Shown piece by piece: positions 20,894 to 32,321 of a stretch of 50,340 bases of DNA. The stretch comes from an uncultured Bacteroidales bacterium (GTDB taxonomy: Bacteria; Bacteroidota; Bacteroidia; Bacteroidales; S143-33), in contig CAZWVR010000003.1 in NCBI GenBank assembly GCA_964637235.1, positions 1-50,340 on the forward strand, given 5' to 3'. The stretch's first letter is position 1. Each line of letters opens with the position of its first letter. Both the position numbers and the translations under genes were made by a program. Below the pieces are notes generated by a model. That model was not told the DNA's origin, made no database searches, and saw only the letters and a list, made by a program, of their open reading frames with translations.

Positions 20894-21265
20894 TTATATG
20901 AATAAGTCTTCTTCTCTATAAGTATTTGAATAGGTTTTTGTCTCTTTATCAGTCTTTTTCCCAGACTTTTTAAATGCCATAAAAGAGCTGAGGGCTGTGC
21001 CAAGTCCACTTAAAAAAGGTAGTATCAGTTTTTTAATGCCGTGATTGGAAAATAAATTTGGGATATATTGCCAAAAGGTTCCTTCCAACTTCAAAGTTTT
21101 TATTACTTCTTTTGTAATATATTCAGCAGAAAGATCGTTTTCTAAATCTTTTAGATGTTTATCTAATAGTTTTTTACGTAAAAATATTTTTTTGTGCAGT
21201 CTTTTTTTATATCTCTGCAAATCGTTAAGATTTCTTACTCTTGCTAATATTTTTTTGTCTTTCAT
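20894..21265 (-). CDS. Hypothetical protein (basic N-terminal coiled coil plus one hydrophobic segment)
   Basis: Track ORF with an ATG start. It overlaps the upstream gene by 41 nt. No motif recognised. Confidence 0.55.
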   Translation of the reverse strand: MKDKKILARVRNLNDLQRYKKRLHKKIFLRKKLLDKHLKDLENDLSAEYITKEVIKTLKLEGTFWQYIPNLFSNHGIKKLILPFLSGLGTALSSFMAFKKSGKKTDKETKTYSNTYREEDLFI

Positions 21266-21620
21266 TTTTATCTAAGTTAAAAAATATGGAAAGAAAAATT
21301 CTTAATAAAGGATTTGTTATAAGAGTATGACGCATTAAAAGTATTATAAGGGCAATAATTAGTGCTCCTGCGGAGGTAGCTAAAAAGCCCCAATACCATG
21401 CTCCCCATAATTTACCTAAGTATAAACTTAGCGCTATTAGTAAAAATAAAAATACAAAAGAGAAAACCATTCCTAATATTGCCCAAAGGATTATTCTGCT
21501 ATATACCTCGACTATTTTTTCAACAGTTTCGGCTTTTAGATAATCAAATTTTAGTTCAATATATCTGCGTATATCCTTAGAGATTTTATTTAGATGTTCC
21601 GATAAGTTTTTTTCTGCCAT
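21225..21620 (-). CDS. Small two-TM membrane protein, holin-X/DUF1469-like
   Basis: An amphipathic N-terminus followed by two long hydrophobic helices. It sits directly after a YtxH gene, an arrangement I recall from the common YtxH/holin-family clusters. The family assignment is from memory only. Confidence 0.55.
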   Translation of the reverse strand: MAEKNLSEHLNKISKDIRRYIELKFDYLKAETVEKIVEVYSRIILWAILGMVFSFVFLFLLIALSLYLGKLWGAWYWGFLATSAGALIIALIILLMRHTLITNPLLRIFLSIFFNLDKNERQKNISKSKKS

Positions 21621-24254: not shown

Positions 24255-24354
24255 GATTATGCTACTTCTGATGCTTCTGTATATACAAAATTAGAAAATC
24301 TTAATTTGCTTCAAAATTAAAACTCTTTTATCTTTGTATATAAAAAAGCTAAAT

Positions 24355-25902
24355 ATGAAAAGCTTTGTTGCTTGGCTTACAACTATTTTTCATCATTGGG
24401 GCTTTTCTTCACATGGAGTAGAAATAGCTATTACAGTTGTGTTATTTATAATTCTTCTTTTTATAGCATGGGTTGCTAATTTGTTAACAAAATATGTAAT
24501 TGTTAAGATTGTTGAAGCAATAATTAAGAAGACAAAAAATGACTATGATGATGTATTTATTCAACATAAGGCTTTTAATAATCTTTCGCATATAATTCCT
24601 GCTTTGATTATATATTTTGGAGTACCTTTTACATCTAAAAGTGAGGTTTTCATTGGTGTAATTAGGGATTTGACTTATGTATATCTTATTATTGCTATTT
24701 TATTGGTTATCAATAAGATATTAAATGCATTGAACGATATTTATGAGATTTATGCTGAGAAACGACAAATAAATGTTCATATAAAGCAGTTTATTCAAGT
24801 TGTAAAGATAATTTTTATCATAATTGCCATAATTTTAATTATTTCTGTGATCCTTCATAAAAAACCTGGTGCAATACTCGCAGGTTTAGGTGCTATGACA
24901 GCAGTACTTATGTTAATTTTTCGCGATTCTATTTTAAGTTTTGTTGCAGGTATTCAATTAACTGCATATCAGATGGTTAAAGAGGGTGATTGGATAACGG
25001 TACCTTCTCGCGGCATTGATGGGGATGTTATGGATATTAGTCTTAATACTGTTAAAATACGTAATTTTGATAAGACCATATCTACAATACCTACATATGC
25101 TTTGGTACAGGAGTCTTTTATCAATTGGAAAGGAATGGAGCAGAGTGGTGGGCGTAGAATAAAAAGGAGCATTTATATAGATATGAATTCTATTAAAATT
25201 GCTGATAATGAACTTGTTGAAAAATTACGAAAAATAAGTTTCCTTAAAGAAATTATTGAACAAGAAAATACAGAATTAAGCAATGATTTGATTAAAATTG
25301 CAGAAAATCAGGCTATTACAAATATTACTCTGTTTAGACATTATATTGAAGCTTATATTAGAAAAAATTTCCGAGTTTATAAGAAATATAAAAAGCAAAC
25401 TTTTATCAAGGATTCAGTAGTTATTGAAAGGTTTGTTATAGATGATCCTGAGGAATTTAAAGCAGACTTAGGCAAATACGCTGATAAATATACAGAAGTT
25501 CTTGATGGTAAATTGATTATCAAAGATGTAAATAAGTTTTTAATACATTTTTCTGATAAATATGTGCTTGAAAATAACTATTTATATAAAGTTAATAAGA
25601 GGCAGAAAACAATAATTGTAAAAGGTACAGAAGTTAAGCGAGATTATTATGAAAAGATTTTAATAAAGCCGGGCTTATTTTGTGATGATTTAACAATGCT
25701 TGTGAGGGAATTACCACCTTCGGAAAAAGGATTGCCCATAGAGGTTTATGTTTTTGCTGCTACTACTGATTGGGCTACTTATGAGCAAATACAGGCACGT
25801 CTGATTGAGCATTTATTAGCAGTTATACCTTTATTTGAACTTAGAGCATTTCAGCAACCTGCGGGTAGTGATTTCAATTTACTATTGAATAAGTCTAATT
25901 AA
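24355..25902 (+). CDS. MscS-family mechanosensitive channel with an enlarged C-terminal cytoplasmic region
   Basis: N-terminal TM helices and the MscS beta-domain signature GDWITVPSRGIDGDVMDISLNTVKIRNFDKTISTIPTYALVQESFINW. I chose the ATG at 24355; the track start at 24334 is a TTG. Confidence 0.85.
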   Translation: MKSFVAWLTTIFHHWGFSSHGVEIAITVVLFIILLFIAWVANLLTKYVIVKIVEAIIKKTKNDYDDVFIQHKAFNNLSHIIPALIIYFGVPFTSKSEVFIGVIRDLTYVYLIIAILLVINKILNALNDIYEIYAEKRQINVHIKQFIQVVKIIFIIIAIILIISVILHKKPGAILAGLGAMTAVLMLIFRDSILSFVAGIQLTAYQMVKEGDWITVPSRGIDGDVMDISLNTVKIRNFDKTISTIPTYALVQESFINWKGMEQSGGRRIKRSIYIDMNSIKIADNELVEKLRKISFLKEIIEQENTELSNDLIKIAENQAITNITLFRHYIEAYIRKNFRVYKKYKKQTFIKDSVVIERFVIDDPEEFKADLGKYADKYTEVLDGKLIIKDVNKFLIHFSDKYVLENNYLYKVNKRQKTIIVKGTEVKRDYYEKILIKPGLFCDDLTMLVRELPPSEKGLPIEVYVFAATTDWATYEQIQARLIEHLLAVIPLFELRAFQQPAGSDFNLLLNKSN

Positions 25903-28900
25903 ATTTTCATTCTGCTAAATATATGTTTTATAATTTCACGGTCTGTTGCTAAAAGATTGAAAAATTTAAATCGGTTTAAAGCTAAAATATTTGCTTTTTT
26001 TTCGACTATTAGTTTTTGGGTTTTTATTGGTGCATTTAATCCTCTTATAATTAGTGTATTTCGGGAGAAGTTTTTGTTTTCTGCTTTTAATTCGCCTTTT
26101 ATTATCAAAAAGATATATTCTTGTCCTTCAATAAAGAAATTTAGTGTTTCTCCTTCTGACAGTTTTATTTGTTTGCTTATTTCTGCTACATATTGTAGTG
26201 ATTTTTCTGAAACAGTGTAGAATAAATAGATTCGTTTTAGTTTTTTTATTCTATCAATGATAAGATCATCTTTATTTTTTAGTTTGTTAAGTATATGGCT
26301 TTTATTTTTTGGTATTGTAGAAAAAATTTTTTCGCACAATTGTGGAGAAATTTTATATAGAATTTTAGCTGCGGTATCAAATACAAGTGGGTCTGGGTTA
26401 TAAATTGCGATTAAAATATCGCGAATTGTACATTTTTCCAGTTTTTTGTATATAAGTTGGGCTTGTTCTCGTGTCCAAGTTTCAGGAAATTGAATTTTGG
26501 GTATCTCTTGGATATTGATTTGGGTTTTGTCGATTTGTTTTGCAAGTAGTTCCAAAGCTTTTGATATTGTCCAGTTATCTATTCGTCTATAATCACTCAT
26601 AATGATGTCAAGCAGACGTTCTTTGAAAGTAAGGTTTTCATAATGGAAATGAGGTTTAAGGCGTTTTACTTTTTGTCCAATACTGATGGGTTCAAATATA
26701 GGTAGTAAAATATGTTTAATATCGTTATCTATAAAGTTATCAATCAATTCTAAGGCAAATATAGTGTTTTCTCCAATTATATTTGTTTTTATCAGTTCAA
26801 TAAGTTCTGTTTCGTGAATAAAAGATAAGAGTTTAAATAATTGTTCAAATTTGCTAATTCTTTCTAAATCAAGTGATTGCACTAGTTTTAAAGTATTTTT
26901 TTCTCTAACAATATCTCTTATTGATAGATATAGCCACATAATATTATCTACTGTATCTTTAATTTTTTCTTTAATTATTGCGATAGTGTCTTCCTTTGCT
27001 TTAAAATCTGAGTAATAAAGCGCGTCAATTACAACTTCTTGTATATGCCTGTTTGGATAATTTATATAAGAAATTATCATTCGTTGTGCTTTGGCTGTGC
27101 CTATTTTTGCAAATACTTGGAGTATTTTTTCTTTTACGATGTTGTTTTGGGTATTTATAAAAAATTTATTCAGTATGTTTAGAATATCTTCACCAATTTC
27201 AACTAAAATACTGATTACCAGGTTATTGTATTCAGAGTCTTCTAAAAGTTTTATAATTTTTTCCCATAATTGTGGAGTTTTTCGTTTGCTTGCCAATTTA
27301 ATAGCAGCTAATTTTACTTGTCTATTATCATCTTCCAGTAGAATTTTTATGTATTTTATATCTCTGGGCTGGGGAAATTTTATGAAATATTTTATTGCTT
27401 TTATTTTATCTTTAACATTTGAGGAGTTAATTAATTGTTCTATTTCCTGATCTGAGGCAGGATTAGTTATATCTGAGAAATCGAGGTTGTAAAGTGCTTG
27501 GATTATAATTTTTTGTAGTTCTCGTTCTTTAAAACCTATTTTATCGCCAACTTGTTCAATTATTTTTACTAATTTTTGAGTGTAAGTGCTATCAATATTT
27601 AGCAGGATAATTTTTCTAAGGAGGTTATCGTCGATTTTTAGCAGAAAGCTGGCATAAACTTCCAGACTCCGGGGATTTGTTTCTGAAAGGACTAATGCAC
27701 TGAATTTATAGGTATTTTTTTCTGGGCTTAAAATATTTTTTTGGAGTATATCTAAGGCAAAAACATCTTTTTCTACGTATTGAAAATCAAAAAGGCGTTT
27801 TTCTTCTAAAATTTGGTGGATCCGATATTTGTATGTATTGTATAATTTAAAGGCGCTGAGAATAAATAAAATCATTACTGGCAGGATATAAAGTGGATAT
27901 AGTCCTAATTTAAATATTTCTCCACCTTTGACCAGTGTAAGATTTATGATAAAAAGTATGATTCCTGCCAAAGCTATTGCCAGTTGTTGAACAATTCCTA
28001 CTCGGGTTTGGATATATAATTTTTGATTATCCGGTAAAGCTTGATATAGAACATTAAAAGATGGGTCGTCTATACCTCGACGGATTATTCGTTCCAGCAT
28101 TTTATTAGCAGTAATAAATCCTAAAAAGAAAAAGCTTAATGTTCCAGCAATTTGTGCACTTATAAAAGCTAAAAGAAAAATAGTTGTTATTGTAATACCC
28201 ATAAATGTCAATCCTACTTTTATTCCCCATCGGCTGAGAATTCTACCTGAAAATACTGATATTAAAAATTCGCCTATTTTTAATCCTGCAAATACTATTG
28301 ACATAAAAGCTGCTACTGCTTGATCGTTCGGGAAAAGTCCTGTTTGTGATTTTATGGTGATAAGAAATCCATAGTCCACTAAAAAAATTACTACTGCCGA
28401 AAGTAAAGCTGTAATAAAAATGAATATTATGAACTTATTTTTTAGAAGTTTACTTTTTATAAAATTTTGTTTTACTTCATTATGGAACGATTTGGTTTCG
28501 GGGAATTTTTTATATATGTAGAAAATTAAAATAATAGCAGCTATAAGTCCTATGCTTCCTATTAGAATTAAATCATAATGATGAGGTAAAATTTTTATTA
28601 GCAAACTAATTGTAAAATAGCTGATTATAGCTGCAATAACTCCACCGAGATTTATTAAGCCGTAGAATTTTTTCACTTGCAGTAGGTTAAGAAGTCGGAC
28701 GGCTAAGCCTCCTGTTACAGTAGAAACAAAAGCAATAAAGGGCCAAGCCCATATAAAAACAAAAAAAGCTAAATATTTATATGCTAATTTTTTTTCATAG
28801 GTAGTTAAGCTTAGTAGATTTTTATCTAACAAGACCAGAAAAAAGCGAGATATAAGGGAGATGAATAACATAATCAATATGGCGATGGTAAAAAGAGTTT

Positions 28901-29153
28901 TGCTTTTATATTTTATTTGAATATTTGAATAGATTACAATGGCAATAGTGCCTACTATTCCTGAGAATATATAGGCAATAGGGAGTTCCTTATGTCCAAA
29001 GTTTGCTAAAAATTGGGAGTTGGCAGGTACAAAATAAAAGGCTATAAATAAACCTAAGAAAAATGAAAAAATAAATAGAAATTTGAGTTTATTAAAATCC
29101 TCTTTTGTTAATTTGAATTTATCTCTAAAATATTTTTCTATACTAAATTTCAT
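25899..29153 (-). CDS. 1084-aa fusion: 12-TM MFS/TLC-like transporter domain, HEAT-like helical repeats and a C-terminal cNMP-binding-like module
   Basis: About 12 hydrophobic helices in aa 22-440 (nt 27834-29090). HEAT-like repeats lie around aa 575-720 (LLEDDNRQVKLAAIKLASKRK, YPNRHIQEVVIDALYYS). The C-terminal aa 965-1084 have cNMP-domain-like spacing (LFYTVSEKSLQYVAE..LSEGETL..GQEYIFLIIKGELK) but no clear phosphate-binding cassette. Confidence 0.8.
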   Translation of the reverse strand: MKFSIEKYFRDKFKLTKEDFNKLKFLFIFSFFLGLFIAFYFVPANSQFLANFGHKELPIAYIFSGIVGTIAIVIYSNIQIKYKSKTLFTIAILIMLFISLISRFFLVLLDKNLLSLTTYEKKLAYKYLAFFVFIWAWPFIAFVSTVTGGLAVRLLNLLQVKKFYGLINLGGVIAAIISYFTISLLIKILPHHYDLILIGSIGLIAAIILIFYIYKKFPETKSFHNEVKQNFIKSKLLKNKFIIFIFITALLSAVVIFLVDYGFLITIKSQTGLFPNDQAVAAFMSIVFAGLKIGEFLISVFSGRILSRWGIKVGLTFMGITITTIFLLAFISAQIAGTLSFFFLGFITANKMLERIIRRGIDDPSFNVLYQALPDNQKLYIQTRVGIVQQLAIALAGIILFIINLTLVKGGEIFKLGLYPLYILPVMILFILSAFKLYNTYKYRIHQILEEKRLFDFQYVEKDVFALDILQKNILSPEKNTYKFSALVLSETNPRSLEVYASFLLKIDDNLLRKIILLNIDSTYTQKLVKIIEQVGDKIGFKERELQKIIIQALYNLDFSDITNPASDQEIEQLINSSNVKDKIKAIKYFIKFPQPRDIKYIKILLEDDNRQVKLAAIKLASKRKTPQLWEKIIKLLEDSEYNNLVISILVEIGEDILNILNKFFINTQNNIVKEKILQVFAKIGTAKAQRMIISYINYPNRHIQEVVIDALYYSDFKAKEDTIAIIKEKIKDTVDNIMWLYLSIRDIVREKNTLKLVQSLDLERISKFEQLFKLLSFIHETELIELIKTNIIGENTIFALELIDNFIDNDIKHILLPIFEPISIGQKVKRLKPHFHYENLTFKERLLDIIMSDYRRIDNWTISKALELLAKQIDKTQINIQEIPKIQFPETWTREQAQLIYKKLEKCTIRDILIAIYNPDPLVFDTAAKILYKISPQLCEKIFSTIPKNKSHILNKLKNKDDLIIDRIKKLKRIYLFYTVSEKSLQYVAEISKQIKLSEGETLNFFIEGQEYIFLIIKGELKAENKNFSRNTLIIRGLNAPIKTQKLIVEKKANILALNRFKFFNLLATDREIIKHIFSRMKI

Positions 29154-29162
29154 ATAAAAAAG

Positions 29163-30572
29163 CTAATCATTTTGCTGTTGCAAAATAACTAATTTTTCTT
29201 TTCTGAATTTATATATTTTGACCACAACATAAATTGTTATTAAAAATGCCAATATTGAAATTATCCAGAATACAGTGTCGGAATTTGGTGACTTGAATTT
29301 TATTGCTCTTTCAATGGCTTTATATATGTTTAAAATGCCTATCACAGTGGTTATCCATACTACAAAAGACATTAAAATATTGGAAAAATGGCTATTTATC
29401 CGTTTTTTCCCCATTATTTCAGGATTATTTATTACTATCATCAGAAATATACTGATGAAGGGTAAAATTAGTCCATTAAATGCTTGTGCCAAAATTATTG
29501 CAGGAACAGGTTTAACTTGTAAGAAACCGAATGTTAGACCGACTGCTAAAATTGTAATTGTCAATAATCTAAATCTTAATGATTGAGATCCCCATTTTTC
29601 ATTATTTTGTTGATTGAGTAAACTGCGGGTTGTAATTGCCGAAGCCAGAGGTGCAGTGATAGCTGATGTAAAACCTGCTGCAAACATTCCTATACCAAAA
29701 ATATATACAGCATATTCATTGATGTATGAGTTTAAATATAAAGCGTCTTTTATAATATCAAATGAGAAGGTTAGATTTTTTAGAGCTTCCTCAGACCAGC
29801 CAGCTGTTAGCGCACTTCCTACTGTCATTATAGACATTGATATTATGCCTCCTAATATTATTGCTACGCTTAGTCCAAAACGTACATCTCTGATATTGTG
29901 TGTTTTATCTATTATGCCTGAGCCAAGAAATATATCGTAAGGGACTACGGTAGTTCCTATAATTCCTAATATCAATATTCCGGCTCCTGGTACATCTGGA
30001 ATAGTTGGTATAAAGCTTCCTAATAGTAATGCATCAATATCAGGTTTGACAACTATGGCTGTAAATAGGAATGCAAAGCCCATTAAAAATACAAATGCAC
30101 CAAGAAATTGGGCAATTATGCGTATAGATTTTAAGTTTAAAGCAATAATGGCAAGAAGGGCAACGATAGTTACGAACCATAATTTATCTGTATGCGGGAA
30201 AATAAAATGTAAGCCTTCAATGGAACCGAGAATATTACCGGCTTCATAAGCTGCGCTACCAAGTACTATTGCCATTATTACAGAAAATATGACTGCACCT
30301 CGCGATTTTTTACCTGCAAATTGTTTTGCTATTGCTTCTCCTAAGTTCATACCAGAATATATGGTAATCCGGGCGCTAGCTTCTTGGAGTAATAGACAGG
30401 CAAAAATGGAAAATAGTATGGTCCACATTAAATCAAAATGATAATATACGCCTGCCTTGGTTAAGGTTGTCACTGTGCCAGGTCCTATAAACGCAGCTGA
30501 TACTACTGACCAAAATAGTATTACGAAAAATTTATGTCTTATTTTCTTTAATATGTTTTTAAGTTTATTCAT
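29163..30572 (-). CDS. NRAMP-fold (SLC11-like) transporter lacking the canonical metal-binding residues
   Basis: The TM1 motif is AAFIGPGTVTT where MntH has DPGN. The TM6 motif is GTTVVPYDIFLGS where MntH has GATVMPHxxxLHS. About 11-12 TM helices; 469 aa. Confidence 0.8.
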   Translation of the reverse strand: MNKLKNILKKIRHKFFVILFWSVVSAAFIGPGTVTTLTKAGVYYHFDLMWTILFSIFACLLLQEASARITIYSGMNLGEAIAKQFAGKKSRGAVIFSVIMAIVLGSAAYEAGNILGSIEGLHFIFPHTDKLWFVTIVALLAIIALNLKSIRIIAQFLGAFVFLMGFAFLFTAIVVKPDIDALLLGSFIPTIPDVPGAGILILGIIGTTVVPYDIFLGSGIIDKTHNIRDVRFGLSVAIILGGIISMSIMTVGSALTAGWSEEALKNLTFSFDIIKDALYLNSYINEYAVYIFGIGMFAAGFTSAITAPLASAITTRSLLNQQNNEKWGSQSLRFRLLTITILAVGLTFGFLQVKPVPAIILAQAFNGLILPFISIFLMIVINNPEIMGKKRINSHFSNILMSFVVWITTVIGILNIYKAIERAIKFKSPNSDTVFWIISILAFLITIYVVVKIYKFRKEKLVILQQQND

Positions 30573-31099
30573 TGAGCGTCTTTAACATATTCAAATATTT
30601 TGAGTTTTTCTCTCATCTGTTCAATAACTTCCTCTATATTAAGATTTTGCTGTTTTTGTAGTAAGTGTTGCAATGCTTCAATAGGTTCAAAATTGGAGGT
30701 AAAATCTCCGTCTAATATTTTGGCAGGACCATTTTTCCTTCGGTAATAAAAAGCGTACTTGGCTTTGTCGGGTTCAAAGCTATATTTCCCTTTTTCTCTT
30801 AATTGCCAGATGGGTGTTATATCAAGGTCATAACCTTTGGGAAATTGTCCCGATAGGGCTTCTAAAAAGTTTATTCTTTCCAGTGCATAAAAGCTAACTA
30901 TATAAACTTCTCCTATTGTAGCAGCATTTTTGTATCTTTTATCTATGTAAACACTTCCTTGTTCAGATTTCATCAGTTGCCCATTAGTATAGTAGTACCC
31001 TTTGAATTCTGCTCCTTTGATGTAAAAATGAAATTTTTGTCCTTGCCTAAGGGTACCATATACAAATAATCTAATTTTGGGTTTATCTAATCCGTTCAT
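30569..31099 (-). CDS. Gamma-glutamylcyclotransferase-fold (AIG2/GGACT-like) protein with a helical C-terminal extension
   Basis: N-terminal LFVYGTLRQG signature, then GEVYIV..LERINFLEAL resembling the G-x-ly..lD..E region. The last ~50 aa have no match I recognise. Confidence 0.7.
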   Translation of the reverse strand: MNGLDKPKIRLFVYGTLRQGQKFHFYIKGAEFKGYYYTNGQLMKSEQGSVYIDKRYKNAATIGEVYIVSFYALERINFLEALSGQFPKGYDLDITPIWQLREKGKYSFEPDKAKYAFYYRRKNGPAKILDGDFTSNFEPIEALQHLLQKQQNLNIEEVIEQMREKLKIFEYVKDAQ

Positions 31100-31232
31100 A
31101 ATTATTTTTGTATTTCTAAAACAAATTCTTTACCAATTTTTGAGTTTTTTTATTGCGTTTTTTAGATTTAAAAAAATTGCAAATTTGCACAAAATTTATA
31201 AAAAAGTTGGTTTATACCAAAATTATTTTTCA

Positions 31233-32321
31233 ATGCGAATACTTATTGCTTTTGATAAGTTCAAATATACTTTTTCTGCGGAGGAAATTACACATATAGT
31301 CGCTCAGTTGTTAGATTCAGATAAATACACTATTTGGGAAGTGCCACTTTCTGATGGAGGTGAAGGATTTTTAGATGTCATAAAAAGATATGTGTCTGCT
31401 CAATTTATTGAGTTAAAAACATATAATGCCATTTTAGAAGTAATTACTGCCCCTGTTTTAGTTGCTGGGAGGGTTGCGTTTATAGAATGTGCTAACACTT
31501 GTGGTATTGCCAATCTACCTGCTGATAAAAGAAATCCACTTTTTACTACAAGTTTTGGTCTTGGAATTCAAATAAAAAAATTGTTAGAGTCTGAGGGAGT
31601 TTCAGAATTTTATATTGGTTTAGGAGGGAGTGCTACTCATGATGTTGGTATTGGAATGGCTGCGGCTTTGGGGTATAGATTTATAGATGTTTATAAGCGT
31701 GAATTAAAACCCATAGGCAAAAATCTTATTGAAATAAATCATATTGTTTTTCCGAAGTCTTTTCCATCAGGGGTAAAGTTTACAGGTGTGTGCGATGTTA
31801 GAAATCCTTTATTGGGAGAAAATGGGGCTGCATATACCTTTGCACAGCAAAAAGGAGCACGGGAATATGAAATTCAGTTATTGGAGAAGGGTACAAAAAA
31901 TATTAGTGAAAAGATTAGGCAATATTTAAAACAGAATATTGGATATGGAGCTTTTGAAGGCGCAGCTGGCGGATTGGGTGCTGGTATTAAAGCCTTTTTG
32001 AGGGGTAAACTTATTTCAGGAGCTCAATTTGTTTTTAAACTTGCTGATATTGAGCATAAAATAAAAAATGCTGATGTTATTATTACTGGCGAGGGTCGTC
32101 TGGATAAAACATCTTTTAAAGGTAAACTTACCGGAGAGATTTATAAACTTGCTGTTAAATATCATAAAAAGCTTATAGTTATTTGTGGTTCATTGTATGG
32201 GGATATAGATTTACCAAATTTGGAGATTTATCCTCTGTTTTACGAAAAAGTGCCCATTTCAATAGCTAAAAAATTAACTCCCCAGAGAATGAAACTTGTT
32301 ATAAATAATATTTTTAAGTAA
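31233..32321 (+). CDS. glxK: Glycerate kinase
   Basis: MRILIAFDKFKYTFSAEE and PLSDGGEGF at the N-terminus, with ITGEGRLDKTSFKGK in the C-terminal half. The track start at 31077 is a TTG giving 52 junk residues that overlap the divergent gene. Confidence 0.88.
   Translation: MRILIAFDKFKYTFSAEEITHIVAQLLDSDKYTIWEVPLSDGGEGFLDVIKRYVSAQFIELKTYNAILEVITAPVLVAGRVAFIECANTCGIANLPADKRNPLFTTSFGLGIQIKKLLESEGVSEFYIGLGGSATHDVGIGMAAALGYRFIDVYKRELKPIGKNLIEINHIVFPKSFPSGVKFTGVCDVRNPLLGENGAAYTFAQQKGAREYEIQLLEKGTKNISEKIRQYLKQNIGYGAFEGAAGGLGAGIKAFLRGKLISGAQFVFKLADIEHKIKNADVIITGEGRLDKTSFKGKLTGEIYKLAVKYHKKLIVICGSLYGDIDLPNLEIYPLFYEKVPISIAKKLTPQRMKLVINNIFK

Follow-up and report, generated by a model that had tools for sequence, protein, structure and literature searches.

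Among Nramp-related proteins, there are "G-motif" groups without metal and proton residues that are otherwise uncharacterised (PMC12873925). For one member, PxpT, genetics show that cells cannot grow on 5-oxoproline without it and that the growth loss of a ΔpxpT mutant on this compound is complemented by pxpT alone; likewise, deletion of ycsG blocks 5-oxoproline use (PMC13274462). 5-Oxoproline is toxic unless removed (bioRxiv 10.1101/2024.05.01.592088). An NTT-HEAT-cNBD protein architecture has also been described already (PMC5381601).

Here, we analysed a window of 50,340 nucleotides from an uncultured Bacteroidales bacterium (contig CAZWVR010000003.1), which contains an operon of three minus-strand genes joined via an ATGA overlap between the first two and a gap of 9 nt between the last two. 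Its features are as follows:

31100 to 31232, no strand assigned: divergent intergenic region of 133 nt, from the GGCT-like gene to a glycerate-kinase gene
30569 to 31099, minus strand: GGCT-like gene (176 aa)
30569 to 30572, minus strand: ATGA stop/start overlap of the GGCT-like and carrier genes, read from the sequence
29163 to 30572, minus strand: gene for a G-motif (GPGT/PYD-type) Nramp-related carrier (469 aa)
29154 to 29162, minus strand: spacer 'cttttttat' (9 nt), from the carrier stop codon TAG to the ATG of the 1084-aa gene
25899 to 29153, minus strand: large fusion gene (1084 aa)
25899 to 25902, no strand assigned: TTAA convergent stop overlap of the 1084-aa gene (minus) and an MscS-like gene (plus)

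The gene calls, the overlaps, the 9-nt gap, and the 133-nt spacer of the original prediction were all borne out. Homologues at 50 to 67% identity in many MAGs indicate that the three genes are real. The ATGA overlap would couple translation of the GGCT-like and carrier genes, and all three genes are presumably cotranscribed; no minus-strand terminator-like site was found within the three-gene unit. The divergent spacer, across which the glycerate-kinase gene starts with an ATG at 31233, may serve as the operon's promoter region. Within it, 118 nt before the ATG of the GGCT-like gene, lies a TAnnTTTG motif of the Bacteroidetes type (TAATTTTG, minus strand, 31218 to 31225). A σ70-type promoter scan of the spacer did not rise above shuffles, and no Rfam element was present in it.

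The first product belongs, by its sequence, to a distinct subfamily (~170 aa) of the GGACT/AIG2-like γ-glutamyl cyclotransferase fold, predicted to be cytosolic and carrying a C-terminal extension. It matches Pfam GGACT (PF06094) at 32.3 bits (cutoff 22.8), and its closest PDB relatives are PH0828 (1V30), YkqA, and YtfP. Two sites bear on catalysis:

31046 to 31060, minus strand: YGTLR motif (aa 14 to 18), the N-terminal signature of GGCT-fold enzymes, with G15, T16, L17, and R18 invariant in alignment A5
30908 to 30910, minus strand: Glu64 in the 'TIGEVY' motif, candidate catalytic glutamate, invariant in alignment A5

Glu64 aligns with the EVY of PH0828 and is at least 90% conserved in 51 GGCT-like sequences; its role in catalysis would follow from the GGACT/GGCT literature. 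GGCT-fold enzymes need no metal. The subfamily, recognisable by the motifs FV[FY]GTLR, TxGExY, and SGEFPKGYDL, is tiny, with only 18 representatives at E ≤ 1e-10 among 1.84 billion, and in every context read, a carrier or fusion gene adjoins it. The window copy has Phe where a His is otherwise at least 90% conserved.

The second product matches Pfam Nramp (E = 1e-63) and scores 124.5 bits against NCBIfam MntH, under the 430-bit cutoff. Its canonical metal site has been replaced in both unwound helices:

30474 to 30485, minus strand: TM1 'GPGT' (aa 30 to 33), in place of the metal-binding DPGN, in 120/120 homologues
29934 to 29957, minus strand: TM6 'GTTVVPYD' (aa 206 to 213), in place of GAxxMPHN, in 120/120 homologues

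Every canonical metal-coordinating residue is thereby changed, from Asp to Gly, Asn to Thr, Ala to Thr, Met to Val, and His to Tyr. An MntH control keeps the canonical DPGN, whereas GPGT never varies in the carrier groups linked to GGCT, pxp, or Hyu, and the loss of the metal site is kept at every depth sampled, with both helices altered in all 120 homologues. TM3 and TM6 carry conserved polar residues (E110, N113, and D213), and hydropathy reveals an extra C-terminal hydrophobic segment (aa 431 to 456). The carrier is 36 to 38% identical to haloarchaeal and proteobacterial GPGT proteins, 29% to MntH, and 23% to a YcsG orthologue. Two earlier assignments thus stand: a GGCT fold for the 176-aa product (Pfam score above cutoff, YGTLR and Glu64 kept) and an NRAMP-fold transporter whose metal site is erased.

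The pairing of a GGCT-like enzyme with this metal-site-less carrier is real and widely conserved in Bacteroidota, and the three-gene operon occurs in the FCB group (Bacteroidota and Chlorobiota-type bacteria). We sampled 80 species-level carrier loci, 78 of which could be assessed for GGCT-carrier adjacency. As the proposed unit implied, 49 of the 78 have the GGCT-like gene immediately upstream of the carrier gene, mostly with gaps of 3 to 50 nt. The fusion gene follows the carrier in 23/80 loci, and the full triad is present in 19; the architectures include GNB in 14 loci and GNNB in 5. This arrangement is conserved to a degree far above chance. Because the flanking genes vary by lineage (M23 peptidase, LOG/RecR, and others), the GGCT-carrier pair is itself the conserved unit. 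In 9/80 loci, a fused HyuA/HyuB lactamase takes the place of the GGCT-like gene, often with a 4-nt overlap, and the two partner types never share a locus (0/51 overlap). Another 18/80 carriers have no GGCT, fusion, or Hyu partner. Some carrier paralogues adjoin a TonB-receptor/FecCD/binding-protein cluster, a metal- or cofactor-like context.

More distant GPGT relatives, at a median of 37% identity to the window carrier, lie directly upstream of pxpA(BC) in 40/80 metagenome loci and of HyuAB in 5 more, and a split HyuA/HyuB follows a GPGT carrier in Haloferax and Haloarcula. Since the Hyu-type neighbours score far under the NCBIfam equivalog cutoffs and their best PDB match was deposited as 'N-methylhydantoinase', 5-oxoproline as their substrate is an assumption. 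PxpT/YcsG forms a G-motif group more distant than these pxp- and Hyu-linked relatives and is itself tied to 5-oxoproline use. The ycsG parallel of the original prediction is real, according to the literature and to a Bacillus badius locus reading pxpA-NRAMP-ycsI; the window carrier, however, is not a YcsG orthologue, being in a different G-motif group. The earlier statement that none of the products fits a characterised pathway is now partly outdated, given the PxpT/YcsG genetics (PMC13274462).

Because its relatives adjoin 5-oxoproline-degrading enzymes, the carrier's substrate is most likely a molecule of the 5-oxoproline or γ-glutamyl type rather than a metal. We judge the chances to be somewhat better than even that the operon is a γ-glutamyl/5-oxoproline transport-and-processing module and not one of metal homeostasis, as had been proposed; support for the organic ligand is comparative throughout, coming from the synteny and from the position of relatives upstream of both 5-oxoprolinase-type enzymes. 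We infer the ligands, transport direction, and enzyme activity as follows. The core would be a GGACT-family cyclotransferase-like enzyme in the cytosol, its translation coupled to that of an Nramp-related G-motif secondary carrier. The ligand bound at the carrier's unwound TM1 and TM6 is most likely a small organic solute, a glutamate-derived lactam or γ-glutamyl compound, and not a divalent metal. In sister lineages, the carrier clade upstream of PxpABC or HyuA/HyuB would bring in 5-oxoproline to be converted to glutamate; here, the partner enzyme would instead make 5-oxoproline from γ-glutamyl compounds. The favoured direction is import: an Asp213 ('PYD') subtype may take up a γ-glutamyl compound bearing a free ammonium group, such as Nε-(γ-glutamyl)-lysine or another γ-glutamylamine, which the enzyme would split into 5-oxoproline and an amine or amino acid that the cell can use.

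Asp213 marks the GGCT/fusion-linked subtype. TM6 reads PYD in 60/60 GGCT/fusion-linked carriers and PYN or GYN in 52/52 lactamase-linked carriers, making this position a candidate specificity switch. On the tree, one or two evolutionary events seem to account for the switch, and it is therefore not an independent correlation with partner type; alignment also showed further subtype-specific positions. Alternatively, Asp213 could be a restored cation site (H+, Na+, or metal).

A variant of the module just described runs in the opposite direction, with the carrier exporting or recapturing toxic 5-oxoproline. As a detoxification unit, the operon would degrade intracellular γ-glutamyl compounds through the GGCT-like enzyme and remove the 5-oxoproline through the carrier, sparing the ATP cost of 5-oxoprolinase. 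The mutual exclusivity of GGCT and Hyu-type partners would be expected with export standing in for hydrolysis; the 50-kb window contains no 5-oxoprolinase gene; accumulated 5-oxoproline is toxic; and 5-oxoproline is the simplest shared ligand, because sister carriers are linked to its consumers. We nevertheless consider export doubtful, since the subtype-specific Asn-to-Asp change and other pocket-region substitutions suggest a changed ligand, and an importer is usually paired with the first enzyme in catabolic operons.

It is unlikely, in our estimation, that the carrier is still a divalent-metal importer (of Mn2+ or similar, like the proposed MntG) with a noncanonical site, its linkage to lactamases and other enzymes then reflecting either the supply of metal to metalloenzymes or a tie between Mn and nitrogen metabolism. 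The case draws on YcsG, renamed MntG, whose overexpression is reported to raise cellular Mn and whose gene is repressed by MntR (PMC10448178); on an Acidobacterium capsulatum Nramp-outgroup protein that complemented as a Mn transporter (PMC4072509); and on NrmT/EleNRMT, which move Mg2+/Mn2+ without DPGN/MPH (PMC12873925). The conserved polar residues in TM3 and TM6, the paralogue beside the TonB-receptor/FecCD/periplasmic-binding-protein cluster, and the annotation 'Nramp family divalent metal transporter' in all databases point the same way. However, four of the canonical ligand positions and the His have invariably become Gly, Thr, Thr, Val, and Tyr, and the MntG data transfer poorly to a carrier only 23% identical to YcsG. 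The dominant partners are metal-independent, and the clade is linked to two nonhomologous 5-oxoprolinase-type systems and a 5-oxoproline-forming enzyme, so that the common denominator of the partners is an organic molecule. The growth loss of ΔpxpT and its rescue by pxpT alone also argue against a metal role (PMC13274462).

Very improbable is a GGCT-like protein that is no enzyme of this pathway but serves the carrier as a cytosolic subunit with an accessory or regulatory role, akin to the MgtE-like fragment encoded with NrmT, with the fusion a mere unrelated neighbour: the ATGA overlap suggests stoichiometric coproduction, the small subfamily shows a conserved C-terminal extension of its own along with motifs absent from generic GGACT proteins, sits almost only beside these transporters, and has lost the conserved His in the window copy, and most loci are without the fusion, but the invariant YGTLR and the Glu of 'GE[VL]Y' argue for retained catalysis, and one locus (L086) pairs the same subfamily directly with the fusion and no carrier, so the protein is not a dedicated carrier subunit.

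The third product comprises three parts:

27786 to 29105, minus strand: N-terminal transmembrane domain (aa 17 to 456) of the 1084-aa protein, MFS fold, AF2 pLDDT 85.6
26274 to 27758, minus strand: HEAT/ARM-like α-solenoid (aa 466 to 960), Pfam HEAT_2, 29 to 32 bits
25902 to 26261, minus strand: C-terminal cyclic-nucleotide-binding-homology domain (aa 965 to 1084), domain model pLDDT 85.3

The predicted "transporter/HEAT/cNMP-like" folds are upheld by AlphaFold2 and Foldseek, with a reservation about the last. As modelled, the transmembrane domain, whose Pfam MFS_1 match is weak, is closest to NTT-type ATP/ADP translocators (best Foldseek matches AtNTT1, 9j3l/9j3m, and Chlamydia pneumoniae NTT1, 9j3n; TM ~0.70 to 0.72). 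The solenoid is an all-helical repeat in the AlphaFold2 model and matches karyopherin and the PP2A scaffold. The best 50 Foldseek matches of the C-terminal domain are all CNBD/CNBHD (E ~1e-7), including hERG, EAG1, ELK, PKG, PKA-R, and MlotiK1; yet the family consensus 'IIIRGLNxP' is without GE..A...R[ST]A, and the phosphate-binding-cassette residues are absent. The 1084-aa protein has no Pfam cNMP_binding (PF00027) or TLC match, and hhalign of the CNB-like domain against CRP was not significant. Operon membership, also claimed originally, holds for this locus but is facultative elsewhere, with the fusion in just those 23/80 carrier loci and only 3/7 fusion-anchored loci having GGCT and/or carrier. 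The fusion is thus a facultative partner of known, uncharacterised architecture. Within the favoured module, it would be an optional third component, probably a transporter that handles a related substrate or product and is regulated through its cytosolic HEAT/CNBHD module, with gating by a ligand probably other than cAMP or cGMP. One fusion homologue has been named 'ATP:ADP antiporter, AAA family' by JGI.

The three-gene feature is real and conserved. It lies on the minus strand of the window, and the open reading frame list gives the following coordinates:

30569-31099, minus strand: GGCT-like gene, 176 aa
29163-30572, minus strand: carrier gene, encoding an Nramp-related G-motif protein of 469 aa
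25899-29153, minus strand: fusion gene, encoding a 1084-aa protein with NTT-like MFS, HEAT, and CNB-homology (CNBHD) parts

Reading the junctions in the sequence bore out all such details of the original prediction. The GGCT-like stop codon overlaps the carrier start in ATGA; the carrier and fusion genes are joined by TAG, a 9-nt spacer, and ATG; the fusion stop overlaps that of a convergent MscS-like gene in TTAA; and a 133-nt spacer separates the GGCT-like gene from a divergent glycerate-kinase gene. The unit thus has the form of an operon, with reading frames that share a strand and overlap or nearly abut. Support for a putative single transcript across both junctions is indirect and comes from a terminator scan, which found no minus-strand terminator-like hairpins inside the unit. 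Between 25500 and 31500 of the window there are seven such hairpins, against 2.4±1.4 expected from shuffles, all on the plus strand and antisense to the operon; this excess may be a composition artefact or may mark antisense transcription signals. A σ70 promoter scan gave 27 sites versus 32.6 expected, with a model that is uninformative for Bacteroidota, and a Bacteroidetes-type TAnnTTTG motif 118 nt upstream of the GGCT-like ATG may be a weak sign of a promoter. A riboswitch or leader RNA was rejected because an Rfam gathering scan of the whole window matched only a tRNA at 259-341 and no element in or near the operon.

The flanks are ordinary chromosomal housekeeping genes (PEPCK, IspG, IspD, Maf, PurN, and TerC), and a mobile-element or defence-island origin was rejected on these grounds. 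Together with a window protein bearing a T9SS sorting domain, they are consistent with a Bacteroidota chromosome of ~30% G+C. The window holds no metal-related gene context, neither the operon nor the window holds a GGT or 5-oxoprolinase gene, and the source record has no names for the three proteins. The convergent neighbor (24334-25902, plus strand) encodes a 522-aa MscS-family protein whose Pfam match is confined to the β-domain (residues 198 to 266) and whose long C-terminal region of ~250 aa is without a domain match. Also, amid the housekeeping genes, a holin-superfamily-III-like reading frame (PF07332, 131 aa) overlaps a 123-aa reading frame without a Pfam match (20894-21620, minus strand).

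NRAMP/SLC11 proteins are textbook metal transporters. The carrier has a full-length Nramp domain (Pfam PF01566, E=1.3e-63, residues 34 to 392), like canonical NRAMP/SLC11 proteins (MntH, DraNramp, and DMT1) and NRMT proteins (EleNRMT/NrmT), with which it also has in common the scaffold motifs LLQ…AR and an "AQ..NG..LP"-like segment in TM10. It passes the generic Nramp_1 model (58.9 versus 50) and fails both the NCBIfam MntH model NF001923 (124.5 bits; cutoff, 430) and TIGR01197 (95.2 bits; cutoff, 272.5). Unlike the canonical proteins, it is without DPGN and AxxMPH, and its TM3 Glu is replaced by Asn. TM1 reads GPGT where DPGN is expected, the same in 120/120 closest homologues, and TM6 reads GTTVVPYD where GAxxMPHN is expected, again invariant in the 120. 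The same replacements are still present in haloarchaeal and proteobacterial proteins at 36% identity; the canonical motifs (DPGN) were seen in the control, an MntH from Staphylococcus. Judged from its sequence, the carrier has lost the metal site.

The GGCT-like protein scores above the Pfam GGACT (PF06094) gathering threshold (32.3 bits versus 22.8), and in the PDB it is closest in sequence to PH0828, YkqA, and YtfP. With GGACT/AIG2-like cyclotransferases (mammalian GGACT/A2LD1, E. coli YtfP, B. subtilis YkqA, P. horikoshii PH0828, and BtrG) it shares PF06094, the YGTLR motif (at residues 14 to 18), and the Glu of "GE[VL]Y." This residue, Glu64 within "TIGEVY," is invariant in the subfamily, aligns to PH0828, and is predicted to be catalytic. 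Unlike those enzymes, the window protein belongs to a separate, obligately transporter-linked subfamily of ~170 aa, small and sharply delimited, which has its own conserved motifs (GQLM, GSxYID, RINHLE, SGEFPKGYDL, and RRNxPxKIxxGD) and a C-terminal extension of ~50 aa. Searched exhaustively with HMMER, 1.84 billion representatives yielded 5 matches at E<=1e-30 and 18 with E<=1e-10; below that set came only generic GGACT proteins of 120 to 140 aa, separated from the subfamily by a gap of ~40 bits or more. Residue 78 of the window protein (30866-30868) is Phe at the position of the "RINHLE" His, which is at least 90% conserved in the subfamily. P0241 and P0242, relatives with 84% and 100% identity, share Phe78 with the window copy; the residue could mean altered activity in this lineage.

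A scan with the carrier alignment, using one genome per species, yielded 80 loci from Bacteroidales, other Bacteroidota, Chlorobiota-labelled MAGs, Microscillaceae, and one member of the Phycisphaerae; we analyzed ±10 kb around each.

Gene arrangements at the carrier loci
GGCT–carrier–fusion: 14 loci
GGCT–carrier–carrier–fusion: 5 loci
GGCT–carrier, sequence ends downstream: 9 loci
GGCT–carrier–other: 21 loci
carrier–fusion: 4 loci
carrier–fused HyuA/HyuB: 6 loci
carrier alone: 18 loci

By tblastn, a GGCT-like gene is found in 51 of the 80 loci. Of 78 assessable loci, 49 have it directly upstream of the carrier on the same strand, usually 3 to 50 nt away. The outer genes vary by lineage (M23 peptidase, LOG/RecR, PLP enzyme, and AddB-like nuclease), and so the GGCT–carrier pair itself is the conserved unit; chance synteny is rejected on the same grounds, as the flanks change and the pair stays. 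Gene order across distant genomes is thus strongly kept for the pair, and the third gene accompanies the carrier in 23/80 loci. Some loci (L012, L013, L015, L017, L020, and L176) hold two tandem GPGT/PYD carriers (~445 and 452 aa) between the GGCT-like and NTT–HEAT–CNBHD genes, which may be a heterodimer or a split-specificity pair. Seventeen loci, of Chlorobiota type or from some Bacteroidales, have a conserved protein of ~256 aa encoded convergently just 3′ of the carrier (cluster c3, e.g., L032 11364-12134), for which no Pfam or NCBIfam match was found. At least 13 loci have a LOG-family ("lysine decarboxylase-like," SLOG) gene divergent upstream of the GGCT-like gene, usually with recR beyond (cluster c5/c6; L044 8654-9235, L086 5701-6276, and L089 6377-6946); this persistent LOG/recR neighborhood is probably lineage synteny.

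In 9/80 loci, none with a GGCT-like gene, the gene for a 1268-aa fused Hydant_A_N/Hydantoinase_A/Hydantoinase_B protein comes next after the carrier, often overlapping it by 4 nt; the protein has the same architecture as eukaryotic-type 5-oxoprolinase. On Haloferax and Haloarcula megaplasmids, a 36 to 38% identical GPGT carrier precedes split hydantoinase/oxoprolinase A and B genes; in two haloarchaeal loci (L081 5226-5771 and L085 5235-5780), a CopG-family ribbon-helix-helix regulator gene lies just 5′ of the carrier–HyuA–HyuB operon and is, by analogy, a candidate for a dedicated, PxpR-like regulator. Scanning metagenomes for GPGT carriers of the more distant kind gave a further set of 80 loci, with carriers 34 to 40% identical to that of the window. 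In 40 of these, pxpA, usually with pxpB and pxpC, is directly downstream on the same strand, and 5 more have HyuA/HyuB. We do not call the Hyu-type neighbors 5-oxoprolinases outright, since NCBIfam gave only sub-threshold caprolactamase and acetophenone-carboxylase matches and their best PDB match is an "N-methylhydantoinase." Peptidases of the S9 family (prolyl-oligopeptidase/DPP type) repeatedly lie directly 5′ of carrier–fused-Hyu pairs (L077 4155-6980; cluster c32, comprising L071, L076, L077, and L078), and one is directly 3′ of a GGCT–fusion pair (L086 10274-12499), which suggests a link to peptide breakdown.

The pxpABC- or Hyu-linked carriers, from marine Proteobacteria-like metagenomes and haloarchaea, belong to the same clade as the window carrier, with identical AAFIGPGT and GTTxVxY motifs, and likewise sit in tight same-strand operons with a 5-oxoproline-type enzyme. 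That partner is a lactam hydrolase for them and a cyclotransferase-like protein for the window carrier. They are also shorter (~400 aa versus 469 aa) and keep canonical-Nramp residues lost in the window subtype (the equivalents of M65, E154, H217, and D233), several of which the Asn subtype has in common with MntH and the Asp subtype does not. The residue after the TM6 Tyr, Asp213 in the window carrier, separates the two: it is Asp in 60/60 carriers linked to GGCT and/or the fusion and Asn, as in canonical MPHN, in 52/52 pxp- or Hyu-linked carriers. The change amounts to one or two events on the tree, and so these counts are a lead rather than statistical proof for a candidate specificity switch. 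Asn/Asp offers a natural pair for specificity engineering.

An Nramp-related carrier within an operon for 5-oxoproline metabolism is already known from PxpT/YcsG. PxpT (C. glutamicum Cg1142), YcsG (B. subtilis; also PxpG or "MntG"), and KipT (C. difficile) are "G-motif 3" carriers encoded in pxpABC operons. C. glutamicum cannot grow on 5-oxoproline without PxpT, and deleting ycsG abolishes use of the compound; the 5-oxoproline genetics are limited to these two (PMC13274462). A competing claim makes YcsG a Mn importer, hence "MntG" (PMC10448178), so that its function is disputed between Mn import and 5-oxoproline uptake (PMC10448178; PMC13274462). The window carrier resembles PxpT/YcsG in its NRAMP/LeuT fold, the TM1 Asp-to-Gly change (GPGx), the TM6 His-to-Tyr change, and a gene position next to an enzyme of 5-oxoproline metabolism. 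It differs in Asp213, in a 12th hydrophobic segment, and in the type of that enzyme, which in the window is a GGCT-like protein, predicted to be 5-oxoproline forming, and not a 5-oxoprolinase. A synteny-defined YcsG orthologue on a Bacillus badius plasmid (pxpA–NRAMP–ycsI) has Gly and Tyr substitutions too (GPGF…GGTVGGY), is 23.5% identical to the window carrier (E=3e-8; MntH is closer, at 29%), and falls outside the GPGT clade in a rough NJ tree. Orthology of the window carrier to YcsG/PxpT is therefore rejected; it belongs to another, second G-motif group whose gene context is of the same kind.

The only factor that unites PxpABC, Hyu/OPLAH-type lactamases, and GGCT-fold enzymes is 5-oxoproline, as substrate or product, and not metal. 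GGCT-fold enzymes are not known to require a metal. For these two reasons, we take the clade to carry organic solutes derived from glutamate and the window operon to be a putative γ-glutamyl/5-oxoproline transport-and-processing unit. The original prediction, a module for a γ-glutamyl or oxoproline-like ligand rather than for metal homeostasis, had proposed gene-neighborhood analysis as its own check, and the adjoining orthologues support it.

Transport in such a unit might run in either direction. If the carrier imports, it would bring in a γ-glutamyl compound bearing a free ammonium group, which would fit the Asn-to-Asp change and the logic of an importer with a first enzyme; catabolic operons usually pair the two. 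If it exports, it would remove toxic 5-oxoproline, which fits the mutual exclusion of GGCT and lactamases; the toxicity of 5-oxoproline has been described (bioRxiv 10.1101/2024.05.01.592088).

A role in metal transport, the label that the carrier bears, as "divalent metal transporter," in nearly every database, is at variance with this comparative evidence and keeps some weight. In its favor are the MntG report for YcsG (PMC10448178) and the Mn activity of an Acidobacterium Nramp-outgroup protein (PMC4072509). Also, in three rumen Bacteroidales loci (L051, L053, and L062), a paralogous PYD-type carrier directly follows a TonB-receptor-sized gene, a FecCD-sized gene, and a Peripla_BP_2 binding protein, the last being the member covered by the Pfam check. 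The setting resembles one for siderophore or cobalamin uptake and is at odds with the 5-oxoproline account; the same MAGs also hold a GGCT-linked carrier copy (e.g., L023 and L021).

The organic-solute reading can be taken further, to a proposal that we regard as possible and, on balance, rather doubtful. Under it, the GPGT G-motif clade would be a deep NRAMP/SLC11 branch of carriers for glutamate-derived lactams and γ-glutamyl compounds. In FCB bacteria, the Asp213 ("PYD") subtype with its dedicated GGACT-like enzyme, often joined by the NTT–HEAT–CNBHD transporter, would form a salvage system for protease-resistant γ-glutamyl isopeptides and amines. If true, this would be a previously unrecognized, transporter-linked bacterial half of the γ-glutamyl cycle, and the PxpT-versus-MntG dispute would be settled in favor of organic substrates. 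The Meister cycle (GGT, uptake of γ-glutamyl amino acids, GGCT, and 5-oxoprolinase) likewise joins glutamate-derived transport to a 5-oxoproline-forming cyclotransferase. The likeness is in logic only, as the window operon is without GGT and 5-oxoprolinase, the latter step being supplied in sister operons. Bacteroidota are not known to produce glutathione.

In the papers covered, we found no description of an Nramp-related carrier paired with a dedicated GGACT-like enzyme, of the recurrent third gene, or of a second, uncharacterized G-motif clade tied to both 5-oxoprolinase types, and a literature search on bacterial GGACT/AIG2 roles returned nothing relevant to such a pairing. The analysis presents a large, deep-branching, metal-site-less clade wired to three unrelated enzyme types (PxpABC, HyuAB/OPLAH-type lactamases, and a GGACT-like cyclotransferase) and flags thousands of probable misannotations. 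It is directly relevant to the dispute about the substrate of YcsG/PxpT, Mn2+ or 5-oxoproline. Also, a 2026 preprint from the NRAMP structural community places MntG within "G-motif 3" and lists the remaining Nramp-related groups as "entirely uncharacterised" (PMC12873925); for these, there is now a concrete substrate hypothesis.

The fusion protein is the looser partner. A PDB sequence search with all 1084 aa gave no match at E<=1, and Pfam on sub-fragments at E<=5 gave no TLC (PF03219) or cNMP_binding (PF00027) match and only weak MFS_1. In a confident AlphaFold2 model (pLDDT 85.6; pTM 0.75), the protein comprises a membrane domain of 12 helices, a long α-solenoid, and a C-terminal domain rich in β structure. 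By Foldseek, the membrane domain is closest to NTT ATP/ADP translocators, before generic MFS carriers; the best structural matches are NTT1 structures at 14 to 16% identity, and one homologue carries the JGI annotation ATP:ADP antiporter. HEAT repeats follow the TM domain (PF13646, 29 to 32 bits), corresponding to a helical solenoid at residues 466 to 960 of the model. The last 139 residues, modelled separately (pLDDT 85.3), gave CNBD/CNBHD folds as all of the top 50 Foldseek matches. This domain-level search supersedes an hhalign comparison of the C-terminal family profile with an approximate E. coli CRP sequence, which was not significant (E=0.08; probability, 0.7%), with the expected region in register. 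The phosphate-binding-cassette residues (GE…R[ST]A) are absent from the C-terminal family consensus.

These three parts (12-TM NTT-like, HEAT, and C-terminal CNB-type) correspond in overall form to the NTT–HEAT–cNBD architecture, which Major, Embley & Williams 2017 (PMC5381601) describe as widespread, monophyletic, and uncharacterized, Bacteroidetes included. Unlike those proteins, the window fusion has no TLC/cNMP_binding match and no phosphate-binding cassette, and so its sequence would suit either a divergent member or a merely analogous protein. The parts of PMC5381601 covered make no mention of a recurrent linkage with GGCT-like and Nramp-related carrier genes. This linkage offers a first clue, from genomic context, to what NTT–HEAT–cNBD proteins do; such proteins also occur in Chlamydia and cyanobacteria. 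The fusion is best described as a facultative partner and as a probably ligand-gated transporter of known architecture.

Contexts anchored on the fusion (n=7) are looser than those anchored on the carrier: GGCT–fusion–S9 peptidase without a carrier, carrier–fusion, and GGCT–carrier–carrier–fusion occur once each, and in the other four the fusion comes after a dCache–GAF sensor (two) or an FGGY kinase (two). The GGCT-like gene that adjoins the fusion without a carrier is of the same GGCT-like subfamily. In two Chlorobi-type loci (L087 5322-10955 and L175 3180-8225), the NTT–HEAT–CNBHD gene comes directly after a dCache/sCache–GAF protein, and next to it in L087, on the downstream side, come a LytTR response regulator and an M20 peptidase; the sensor and regulator neighbors hint at a role for the fusion in sensing or signaling.
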